This document shows, one piece after another, positions 35,095-37,781 of a stretch of DNA of 64,000 nucleotides. The stretch is taken from positions 1 to 64,000 of IMG/VR virus record IMGVR_UViG_3300042698_000029. One strand, 5' to 3'. Position 1 is the stretch's first letter, and every line of letters begins with the position of its first letter. A model generated the notes under the pieces. It did no database searches. It was not told where the DNA came from and saw only the letters and a program-made list of their open reading frames with translations. This DNA is from a virus. The translations under genes were made by a program, and so were the position numbers.

Positions 35095-35319
35095 ATGATG
35101 ACGGTGCATGTGCGGGTGCTGGGTGGCCCGTTCTTCGACTTGATGTTCTGGCCCGGAGACACGGTGGGCGATCTGCGGCGGATGATGGAGGAGGCAACCG
35201 GTATGCCGATGGAGGCTCACCGGCTGTCGTTCCAGAGCAGGCAGCTCGATGACGACACGCGGCTGCTGGTGTCTTACGGCGTGACGGAGGCTTCGCTGGT
35301 GGTGGCCGTGCTGTATTGA
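35095..35319 (+). CDS. ubiquitin-like protein (eukaryotic ubiquitin-type beta-grasp)
   Basis: Manual alignment to ubiquitin: 22 of 72 identical with one insertion; GGAGG RBS. Confidence 0.85.
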   Translation: MMTVHVRVLGGPFFDLMFWPGDTVGDLRRMMEEATGMPMEAHRLSFQSRQLDDDTRLLVSYGVTEASLVVAVLY

Positions 35320-35378
35320 GCGCGTGCCGCGCATGTCTGGTGTGCCCCGATTGACCGGGATGTGGTCTCTTGGGGTAC

Positions 35379-37781
35379 ATGACCGATTGGGAACTGGGGA
35401 TCGCGGCGGGTGTGGCCGCGCACATGCGGCAGGTGGAGCAGCGCGCGGTATGGGCCGAGGATCCGGTTCGCTGGGCGAAGGACGTGCTCGGAGTCCACCT
35501 GTGGTCCAAGCAGGCGGAGATCGCCCGCTCGGTGGTGGAGAACAAGAAGACCGTGGTGGCTTCGTGCCACGGCACCGGCAAGGCCCTGGATCCCGCGACC
35601 CCCCTGCCGGTGCCGGGCGGGGGTTTCAAGGCCATCGGAGACGTCGGCGTGGGGGACGTCGTATGCGGGTCGAACGGCATGCCGGTCACGGTCACAGCGG
35701 TCACGGGCGTCCATGTGGCGGACCGGTGGCGGCTGACGTTCGTCTCCCCGGCCGGGGCCTCGCGCATCGTGGCGTCGGGGGACCACGTGTGGCCGGTCCT
35801 GGACGGGCAGGACCAGGCGAGGATCGCGGTGGAGTGCGAGCGCCGGGGCATCGCGGGCAACGACTTCTCCGCGTGGCAGCACCGGGCCCGAAACGTCAGC
35901 ACTCGCGAGCTCATCCGGATGCTGAAGGGCGGTCAGATGCCCTTGGTCCCGGGAGAGGACACCTTTACCGGCAGGGTGAGGCCGCTCGATTTCTCAGGAG
36001 CCCCCGCTCTGCTGGACATGGTGCGGGAGCGGGGCGTGTGCGACCGGACGGGGATGTGGTCGCTGCTGTGGATGACGACCCCCTCGTCCGGGATCGCCCC
36101 GGATCCGCACGACGAGGTGCGCCGGGCCCTGACCGCTGCCGGGGTCAAGACGATCGCCTCCTGCAAGCGGGACACCACGGCGAAGTACTGGACGCTCTCG
36201 GCGATGGGGGATCCCCGGCTGCTGCCTGTTCTGCCGTCCCTGGACGACCGGGCCCTGGCGCGGCTGAGGTTCATGGCCCAGTCGGGGAAGAAGACGGCCC
36301 CGGACTATGGCGGGTGGAGGCTCACGGAGGCCTTGCAGCTGGAGGAGGGGGATGTCTGCTGCATCGAGGTGGACGCCCCGGACCGGCTGTACCTGGCGGG
36401 CAGGGAGCGGGTGCCGACCCACAACTCCATGATCGCTTCGGTGCTGACGTGCTGGTGGGTGGCGACCCGGCCCAGGAACGACGTGATCGCGGTCAGTACG
36501 GCTCCGACCTACGCCCAGGTCAACAAGATCATCTGGGAGGAGATCCGCAAGCACCACGCTACCGCGAAGACACGCGGGACTCCCCTGCCCGGCCGGGTGA
36601 CGCAGTCGGACGAGTGGAAGGACGACGACGGGCGCGTGCTGGGCTTCGGCCGCAAGCCCATGTCGGGGGACCGGCACGGCTTCCAGGGTATCCACCGCGA
36701 GTTCGTGCTGGCCGTGATCGATGAGTCCTGCGGTGTCCCTGAAGAGGTGTGGACGGGTGTCGAGGCCATCACCACCACCGACGGCTGCCGGATCCTGGCC
36801 ATCGGAAACCCCGACGACCGCAACACCGAGTTCGGCCGGGTGTTCCTCCGCCCGGAGCTGGCGGCCGACTGGAACCGCATCAAGGTGCCAGCGTCCTCGA
36901 CCCCCAATTTCACGGGCGAGAAGGTACCGAGCCTGCTGCGACGTGTGCTGGTGTCCCCGCAGTGGTGCGAAGAGCGGCGCCGCGACTGGGGTGAGAAGGA
37001 CGCCCGCTACATCGCCAAGGTGACAGCCGAGTTCCCCGCCACGAGTCAGTCGTCGCTGATCGGCCCTCACCTGATCGAAAGCGCCTTCGAGGATGTGCCC
37101 GCGCAGGAGCGCCGCAACGTGCTGAGGATCGGAGTCGACGTCGCGCGCTTCGGACCGGACTCCACGATCGTAGTCTCCTACTGCGGCCGGACGGCCCGGG
37201 TCGAAGACGCCTGGCACGGCACGGACACGACGTCATCGGCCTACCGGGTGCTGCGGATCGCCGAGGAGTGCAGGGAACGCCTGGACGCCCAGTGGACGGA
37301 GATCCGGGTGGACGCCGTAGGCCTCGGCGCCGGTGTGGTCGATACCCTCAACGCGCGCTCGGTCCTGCTGAAGGAGCCGTGGTTCACCGTGTACGAGATG
37401 CACGGCAGTGCAGCCCCTCCGGCGGACCTGGGCGGCTCGGTGCACGGCTACGGCAACGCACGTGCGTACTGGTACGACCAGCTGCGGCAGAACATCGGCA
37501 ACCAGACGGTGAAGGTCGAGGAGAACCAGACCATCAAGGACGATCTGGCGATCGTCTACTACGTGATGAAGAACGGCCGCATGTTCATCATCTCCAAGGA
37601 GGAGATGCGGACCAAGCACGGCCGCAGCCCCGACTACTCCGACGCCCTGGTCTACGCGACAGCGCCGGTGTTCGGCGGTATGGCCACCGGATCGCTGGTC
37701 TCGGAGGACGCGGCCGACCTGGCCGAGGAGCCCGAGGACGCCCATGACTTCAAGCGTGACCTCTCTATCTCCCCCTACTGA
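35379..37781 (+). CDS. terL: terminase large subunit with intein
   Basis: Walker A SCHGTGK/S split by intein; Walker B VIDE; IGNP; RuvC-like GVDVARFG and SPDYSDA. Confidence 0.95.
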   Translation: MTDWELGIAAGVAAHMRQVEQRAVWAEDPVRWAKDVLGVHLWSKQAEIARSVVENKKTVVASCHGTGKALDPATPLPVPGGGFKAIGDVGVGDVVCGSNGMPVTVTAVTGVHVADRWRLTFVSPAGASRIVASGDHVWPVLDGQDQARIAVECERRGIAGNDFSAWQHRARNVSTRELIRMLKGGQMPLVPGEDTFTGRVRPLDFSGAPALLDMVRERGVCDRTGMWSLLWMTTPSSGIAPDPHDEVRRALTAAGVKTIASCKRDTTAKYWTLSAMGDPRLLPVLPSLDDRALARLRFMAQSGKKTAPDYGGWRLTEALQLEEGDVCCIEVDAPDRLYLAGRERVPTHNSMIASVLTCWWVATRPRNDVIAVSTAPTYAQVNKIIWEEIRKHHATAKTRGTPLPGRVTQSDEWKDDDGRVLGFGRKPMSGDRHGFQGIHREFVLAVIDESCGVPEEVWTGVEAITTTDGCRILAIGNPDDRNTEFGRVFLRPELAADWNRIKVPASSTPNFTGEKVPSLLRRVLVSPQWCEERRRDWGEKDARYIAKVTAEFPATSQSSLIGPHLIESAFEDVPAQERRNVLRIGVDVARFGPDSTIVVSYCGRTARVEDAWHGTDTTSSAYRVLRIAEECRERLDAQWTEIRVDAVGLGAGVVDTLNARSVLLKEPWFTVYEMHGSAAPPADLGGSVHGYGNARAYWYDQLRQNIGNQTVKVEENQTIKDDLAIVYYVMKNGRMFIISKEEMRTKHGRSPDYSDALVYATAPVFGGMATGSLVSEDAADLAEEPEDAHDFKRDLSISPY
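35583..36425 (+). mobile_element. Class 3 intein (281 aa)
   Basis: Starts ALDPATP, ends PTHN/S; W in DHVW, C in VCCIEV and T in PTHN form the WCT triad. Confidence 0.9.

Follow-up and report, generated by a model that had tools for sequence, protein, structure and literature searches.

A tail-less ubiquitin-family protein encoded beside the large terminase gene in a narrow clade of Streptomyces-type phages

What is a ubiquitin-family gene doing among the packaging genes of a tailed phage? Ubiquitin that can be recognised by sequence (Pfam family PF00240) is a distinguishing feature of eukaryotes and of some archaea. A small gene of this kind was first noticed, in a sequence-only reading, in the virus record IMGVR_UViG_3300042698_000029, and its product was suggested to be a non-conjugatable decoy for host conjugation defences or a partner of the protein encoded next to it. 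The complete record is 153,126 bp long, has direct terminal repeats and a G+C content of 65%; the window analyzed here (64,000 nucleotides) is its first 64 kb, and all positions are those of the window unless another locus is named. Its terL and portal DNA is about 73% identical to that of Streptomyces phages Kela, Satis and Frankenweenie (185–200 kb), and by this likeness and the Streptomyces homologs of the neighboring gene n430 (below), the host is probably a Streptomyces-type actinobacterium.

The gene, called Ubl here, occupies positions 35,098–35,319 on the plus strand, a 222 bp open reading frame for a tail-less ubiquitin-family protein of 73 amino acids. An alternative ATG codon lies immediately upstream at 35,095, but every relative of the protein begins with MTV, MNV or MKV, and this first ATG falls at the position of the ribosome-binding-site spacer in the relatives, so the start was set at the second ATG (35,098), which is the more likely of the two. 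The ribosome-binding site itself, GGAGG (35,089–35,093, plus strand), is preserved as GGAG(G/A) 5–7 nt ahead of the MTV-type start at all eight known loci. The third-position G+C content of the frame (GC3 = 0.84) is typical for coding frames of this phage, and gene callers in the public protein collection likewise give the 73-residue product. These features, together with an intact frame in eight lineages, confirm that the reading frame is real. Proteins of the family are acidic (net charge 0 to −4), and the phage protein has no signal peptide.

Assignment to the ubiquitin family, which had been made by eye, is upheld by profile search: the protein matches PF00240 with 35.8 bits (cut-off 25.4; E = 7e-9) over residues 4–73 and profile positions 1–69 of 72. 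A six-frame search of the phage genome found the same family at 34.6 bits, and precomputed annotation places PF00240 on all eight members of the Ubl family. In a phmmer search of the PDB, residues 1–68 matched single-copy ubiquitin with E of about 1e-5, and the local alignment score of the phage protein with ubiquitin lies 18 standard deviations above that of 2000 shuffles. Global alignment to one ubiquitin unit gave the same 22 identities in 72 columns that had been counted by hand and reproduced every substitution then listed, namely K6R, K11P, K27R, K29M, K33A, K48R, K63E and I44S; the LRGG end is indeed missing, as the last residue aligns with ubiquitin R72 and L73–G76 have no counterpart. 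Residues common to the two proteins include M1, V5, L8, G10, G35, F45 and the equivalent of Y59, which belong to the core and the turn. At the position of ubiquitin I44, the Ubl family has Ser, Ala or Trp.

The expected beta-grasp fold agrees with an AF2 model (pLDDT 73.7, built on three sequences), in which elements follow one another in the order beta-beta-alpha-beta-beta-beta (strands 2–7, 12–16, 43–45, 56–59 and 69–72; helix 23–34). VIA-align superimposed this model on ubiquitin variants with Z 5.5 and an rmsd of 2.4 Å over 59 residues, and in a structure search other than Foldseek the best 50 of 48,161 PDB representatives were ubiquitin-like domains with Z 4.0–5.0. Foldseek with the same model returned nothing below E 0.001 in the PDB or BFVD. 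The nearest clusters in a feature search of the ESM Atlas are mostly of PF00240 type, the first of them being “Ubiquitin-like protein 5” at 0.93. The model confidence and Z scores are middling, and both the order of elements and the structural matches fit the fold. The phage Ubl is thus a genuine ubiquitin-family beta-grasp protein.

A word-indexed search of 5.8 billion proteins found seven more clusters of the protein, all metagenomic, which are 42–68% identical and 73–86 amino acids long; the family therefore totals eight clusters, in a narrow clade of uncultivated Streptomyces-type phages. None of the eight members has a terminal GG. Their last three residues are VLY, VRY, YGP, YGS, AGP, VGP, IAP and IGP, and in all eight the C-terminus, which forms no tail and is not conserved, lies at or before the position of ubiquitin R72. 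The two features that had been remarked on together in the window protein fare differently when the seven relatives are compared: the absence of GG extends to all of them, but six of the seven retain lysine. Lysine counts across the eight members are 0, 0, 3, 2, 1, 4, 3 and 4, and some relatives carry it at the positions of ubiquitin K6 and K27. In a phage proteome with 4.1% lysine, the chance of finding none in 73 residues is about 0.05, which is only mildly unusual, and the genome has the high G+C content given above. Because relatives hold lysine and the probability is no lower than this, the lack of lysine in the window protein is incidental to this one GC-rich genome and not a designed or conserved family trait.

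Could a protein with such an end be attached to targets all the same? The window had been said to contain no recognizable E1, E2 or JAB gene, and this holds for the whole of the 153,126 bp record, in which none of the families ThiF, UQ_con, Prok-E2_A, JAB and Prok-JAB found a match at E ≤ 1. Canonical conjugation is implausible, since all members are tail-less and none of these five enzyme families is matched in the phage; the description of the protein as non-conjugatable in the canonical way is borne out to that extent. A cryptic route would have a host protease expose the penultimate glycine of the GP and GS ends for use by a host enzyme, and G-P or G-S ends are reported for six of the eight members. 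The window protein and its closest relative, however, end in LY and RY and have no glycine in the terminal region, the glycine of the other members sits within the last strand (at the position of ubiquitin L71) and not in a flexible tail, and none of the five enzyme families is matched in the phage; we regard cryptic conjugation as barely credible.

The gene order around Ubl is the same in seven lineages: n430 (minus strand), Ubl (plus strand) and terL (plus strand), followed by a small gene, a holin-like gene and more small genes, with the portal gene after these wherever the contig is long enough. The gene terL (35,379–37,781, plus strand; phrog_2, E = 2.4e-22) encodes 800 amino acids from the ATG common to its relatives, with an in-frame TTG at 35,370, and TerL is 89–94% identical between relatives. 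It is interrupted by an intein of 281 amino acids (35,583–36,425, plus strand) that matches the DnaB mini-inteins 6rix and 6bs8 at E 1e-12; the intein follows the Walker A sequence GTGK, starts with Ala and has the boundaries GK/ALD and THN/S. The terminases of the relatives, Kela-type phages included, have similar lengths (789–803 amino acids). Upstream of n430, all related phages have a conserved plus-strand open reading frame of 155–169 amino acids with several CxxC motifs (32,687–33,196 in the window); an earlier terS label for this stretch could not be confirmed, as it has no Pfam or PHROG match. Ubl itself was considered as a candidate small terminase subunit and rejected: it has no PHROG match and only ubiquitin-type Pfam matches, it is acidic, and the slot before terL is lost in one lineage.

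That lineage is L015, and it qualifies the statement that Ubl lies directly upstream of terL, which is correct for seven of the eight lineages. In L015, Ubl and n430 are convergent, with 3 bp between Ubl and the 3′ end of n430, and on its other side n430 forms a directly divergent pair with terL. L017, a more distant phage in which the packaging module is the same and n430 is 46% identical, has no Ubl gene and a 78 bp spacer between n430 and terL. The L015 and L017 spacers, with no Ubl gene between n430 and terL, each represent a single copy of a sequence that is found twice in the window. A left, partial copy of this ancestral spacer (ccattgtgccgg...gcggac; 35,014–35,033) is identical at 12 of 13 positions to the L015 spacer and at 19 of 20 to that of L017. 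The right, full copy of the spacer segment (35,332–35,372), immediately before terL, is that gene's own conserved leader; it is identical at 32 of 41 positions to the L015 spacer and 30 of 40 to the L017 spacer, and is highly conserved in all seven loci with the order n430-Ubl-terL. The spacer segment is thus duplicated on either side of Ubl, as would be expected if a cassette of about 300 bp had been inserted between n430 and terL. This cassette would consist of an upstream motif, the ribosome-binding site and the 222 bp reading frame and would run roughly from 35,034 to 35,331.

The terL leader (35,332–35,378 in the window, 6268–6308 in L015 and 4923–5000 in L017) is conserved as far as the distant L017. 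The ancestral form of this leader contains an inverted repeat, CATGTCC...GGACATG; the leader could serve as an operator or late-promoter element.

The upstream motif travels with the gene. It lies within GGTGGCAGTATGG (35,054–35,072, plus strand), and its conserved 9-mer TGG[CG]A[GA]TAT is present about 35–45 nt upstream of the Ubl start in all eight loci, the relocated copy of L015 included; it occurs once in the 153 kb genome, where 1.6 copies are expected by chance. Judged by this conserved 9-mer, the sequence TGGCAGTAT (35,056–35,064, plus strand) is a putative promoter that resembles an extended −10 element. A consensus promoter scan of 33,100–35,500 called no promoter, the upstream motif included; the same scan recorded a plus-strand hairpin at 33,651–33,668 that is no better than those given by shuffled sequences. 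The patchy presence of Ubl, its relocation in L015, the duplicated spacer and the travelling motif suggest an accessory and not a core gene.

The divergent neighbor n430 (33,692–34,984, minus strand; start set by its homologs) encodes a Ser/Thr-rich protein of 430 amino acids with cysteine motifs and found no match in Pfam, PHROG, PADLOC or NCBIfam. Its family numbers at least 248 clusters (at 90% identity) of about 430–465 amino acids; the members come from many bacterial phyla (among them Streptomyces, Pseudomonadota, Acidobacteria and Chloroflexota) as well as from some large phages, and have in common the cysteine motifs CCPxL, NPNRCHAV and CLDxCDxCEPEL. A resemblance to aerolysin/ETX-MTX2 proteins comes from an Atlas lead of 0.79 and is weak, and the AF2 model from six sequences reached a pLDDT of 39.

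Ubl adjoins n430 in all eight lineages despite the change of order in L015, and in seven of them it directly precedes terL, which brings a partner within the phage into consideration: Ubl could be a small adaptor or chaperone that regulates n430, or TerL and the packaging machinery, through a conserved face. One face of Ubl is indeed conserved, as are the candidate partners n430 and TerL, and tblastn against 50,697 phage records found no match to either Ubl or n430. Yet homologs of n430 stand without a Ubl gene in the related phage L017, in a Streptomyces chromosome (L018) and in an acidobacterial genome (L019), so n430 does not require the Ubl protein. As for the packaging machinery, n430 separates Ubl from terL in L015, terL retains its own conserved leader, the acidic Ubl shows no signature of a small terminase subunit, and its non-synonymous rate is five to seven times that of terL. 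The adjacency to n430 fits a partner within the phage and a shared insertion hot spot equally well. Complex predictions for Ubl with n430, made with alignments of 119 and 8 rows, scored 0.00 and speak neither for nor against binding. On balance, a phage-internal partner seems unlikely.

The rate at which Ubl changes bears on all these readings. Median pairwise identity is 58% for Ubl, against 92% for TerL, 94% for the portal protein and 82% for n430, with dS similar for the four genes. Median dN/dS by the NG86 method is 0.71 for the whole of Ubl, 0.13 for terL, 0.10 for the portal gene and 0.37 for n430. Within Ubl it is 0.47 for the conserved blocks (residues 1–14 and 45–66) and 1.13 for the variable blocks (residues 15–44 and 67–73), where it exceeds 1 in 16 of 28 pairs. 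The conserved half comprises strand 1, the L8-G10-P-F-F turn and the segment from F45 to S66 with the invariant R48 and YGVTE; the 16 invariant columns are M1, V5, L8, G10, F13, T22, V23, G35, F45, R48, Y60-G-V-T-E64 and S66. Strand 2, helix 1, the loop that follows it and the last strand make up the variable half, which changes at a pace near that of silent sites. From this pattern we infer that the conserved half may hold the fold and a putative fixed binding face. The variable half would be under relaxed or diversifying selection, with weak constraint on a minor gene being equally possible.

Such values also raise the question whether Ubl is simply a decaying passenger, a captured ubiquitin gene that drifts under weak constraint and brings the phage little or no benefit. 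The overall dN/dS, its value above 1 in one half, the narrow distribution (eight clusters) and the variable C-terminus are all in keeping with decay. Against it, no copy has acquired a stop codon or frameshift in eight lineages that stand at 42–68% identity, and six of the eight are exactly 73 codons long; the other two are a protein of 80 amino acids, which has a 7-codon insertion, and one called at 86 amino acids, which has a 13-residue N-terminal extension. The invariant columns, the YGVTE block and the lower dN/dS of the conserved blocks, as well as the preserved ribosome-binding site and upstream motif, are likewise at odds with drift, and we judge the passenger explanation decidedly improbable.

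Searches beyond the eight clusters were negative. The related phages Kela and Frankenweenie have no PF00240 match anywhere in their genomes, tblastn with the Ubl protein or with polyubiquitin as query found no ubiquitin homolog in the 50,697 phage records, and the Ubl protein matched no PHROG family. Three pattern scans of IMG/VR (A1, A2 and A3) and one scan of genome contigs (A3) gave no relatives, and a pattern scan of metagenomes returned the known loci only, plus a chance local match (LRLLASYGVTEA) within a bacterial open reading frame of 421 amino acids. In a profile search of 1.8 billion representatives with a three-sequence alignment as query, the best 150 matches were polyubiquitins only, which makes that search uninformative on single-domain kin. 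A PF00240 gene in a tailed phage was not found reported in our literature searches.

The host genome was considered as the source of Ubl and rejected: only one of 201 Streptomyces genomes has a PF00240 match, and that match is SUMO-like and not kin. It is an open reading frame of 114 amino acids (L020, 1381–1725, in Streptomyces genome G112; PF00240, 47 bits) that lies 1.5 kb from a contig end, has the C-terminal sequence QQVGA in place of GG, and could be a transfer or contamination. Near-canonical ubiquitin domains of eukaryotic type (MQIFVKTLTGKTITLEVE...) were seen in four of 401 Actinomycetota genomes (loci L029, 1501–1710; L030 and L033; L031 and L034; and L032, in genomes G369, G396, G303 and G460), and these matched the phage profile because they are ubiquitin and for no other reason. 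At least five of the seven matches carry a C-terminal extension fused to the ubiquitin domain, several are tandem paralogs, and one has a hydrophobic, signal-peptide-like stretch ahead of the domain in the same open frame. Five of the seven have other residues in place of GG (RLRGE, RLQVA, RLRGA, RLRAS and RLRAA), with further chain after them; L032 departs earlier.

The prevalence of conjugation systems in such hosts is relevant to the decoy first proposed. A tail-less Ubl could act as a ubiquitin mimic that ties up an E1, an E2 or a deubiquitinase in a host defence of Bil/Bub or Prok-E2 type, jams that defence and so blocks the tagging of phage proteins, and its helix-1 face might be diversifying in the resulting arms race. 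Prok-E2_A is indeed present in 13 of the 201 Streptomyces genomes, but at 6.5% this target is rare, and Prok-E2_B was found in none of the 201. A ubiquitin fold that has no reactive end would suit a decoy, as would an accessory, cassette-like distribution and the rapid evolution that is typical of arms-race genes. On the other hand, E1 enzymes grip the C-terminal tail of the Ubl, as E1–Ubl complexes show, so the missing tail itself weighs against a decoy. The only bacterial Bil Ubl among the best 50 of the 48,161 PDB representatives (8tyz_B) is no more than 12% identical at Z 4.1, and eukaryote-type ubiquitin and UBL domains are closer. Neither Ubl nor n430 matched a model of PADLOC-DB 2.0 at E ≤ 1, and our literature searches found no published anti-Bil Ubl decoy. 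Altogether, we think it quite unlikely that Ubl jams a defence of this type.

The reading that we favor, tentatively and at a likelihood that falls somewhat short of even, is that Ubl forms a non-conjugated, self-contained accessory cassette whose product binds a partner, most likely a host protein. As the attachment tail is missing, the protein probably acts by plain partner binding; it would stay unattached to targets and act through non-covalent contacts, as do UBL5/Hub1 or integral UBL domains. The gene would then be of the moron type, dispensable for packaging and transcribed from its own host-type promoter, and its product would serve host takeover or counter-defence. This host-binding, moron-type reading is drawn from the patchy distribution, the cassette, the upstream element of its own, the acidity and the fast evolution of Ubl. 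A host partner, although itself rated at a little less than an even chance, is preferred here to the unlikely one within the phage.

Whatever its role, a PF00240 member has been kept intact in eight tailed-phage lineages while one half of it changes near-neutrally. If the protein is host-targeting, it would offer a compact handle on the host–phage interface in Streptomyces-type hosts and a natural case of ubiquitin-fold mimicry outside eukaryotes. If it were a mimic or decoy, it would have no forerunner, either as an anti-defence protein of such a type or as a functional ubiquitin-family gene in a tailed phage. Even a weakly constrained passenger would show that the ubiquitin fold passed into phages and was rapidly eroded in them.

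How does this protein compare with known ubiquitin-like systems? With eukaryotic ubiquitin and the integral (type-2) UBL domains it shares a score above the PF00240 cut-off, 22 of 72 identities and the same order of secondary-structure elements. It differs from ubiquitin in that L73–G76 are absent, I44 is replaced and it is encoded by a lone gene in a tailed phage; its fast evolution also contrasts with the near-invariance of ubiquitin. UBL5/Hub1 has no exposed tail and no di-glycine, binds its partners non-covalently (PMC8431670; PMC4141198) and has a conserved C-terminal di-tyrosine motif (PMC8431670). The phage protein resembles it in its length of about 73 residues and its tail-less end without di-glycine, and the nearest Atlas cluster by language-model features carries the name of UBL5 (above). 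However, YY is found in none of the eight phage proteins (two have one terminal Tyr, and the rest finish with GP, GS or AP). In structure comparison Hub1 (4pyu_A) gave Z 4.5 at 18% identity, and ubiquitin chains gave Z 4.5–5.5 at 19–24%. HIND, the partner motif of Hub1, belongs to the spliceosome and has no equivalent in bacteria.

BfUbb of Bacteroides fragilis, which has no reactive di-glycine end, sets a precedent for a ubiquitin-family protein of eukaryotic type in a prokaryote. This secreted protein is 63% identical to human ubiquitin and kills competitors via a periplasmic PPIase; it is described as acting through target binding and not through conjugation (PMC3352274; PMC5705921; PMC11467351). 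The phage Ubl, in contrast, is about 30% identical to ubiquitin, has no signal peptide and is phage-borne. Baculovirus v-ubi, the ubiquitins of giant viruses and the BVDV inserts are, like it, virus-borne PF00240 sequences, and they are among its weak BFVD matches (none of which reached E 0.001). In eukaryotic viruses, such proteins stay highly identical to ubiquitin and function within the conjugation system of the eukaryotic host.

Bil and Bub Ubls are encoded together with E1, E2 and deubiquitinase and are conjugated through a C-terminal glycine, and many of them hold two or three beta-grasp domains (10.1101/2023.09.04.556158; PMC11601603). They too are beta-grasp proteins, and they act in the conflict between phage and bacterium; the phage Ubl differs from them in having a single domain, no matched enzymes and no reactive end, as well as in the low structure-based identity to 8tyz_B given above. 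Judged from sequence comparison, what is new here is a stand-alone, tail-less member of the ubiquitin family, encoded apart from any match to the five conjugation-enzyme families searched, in a tailed phage.
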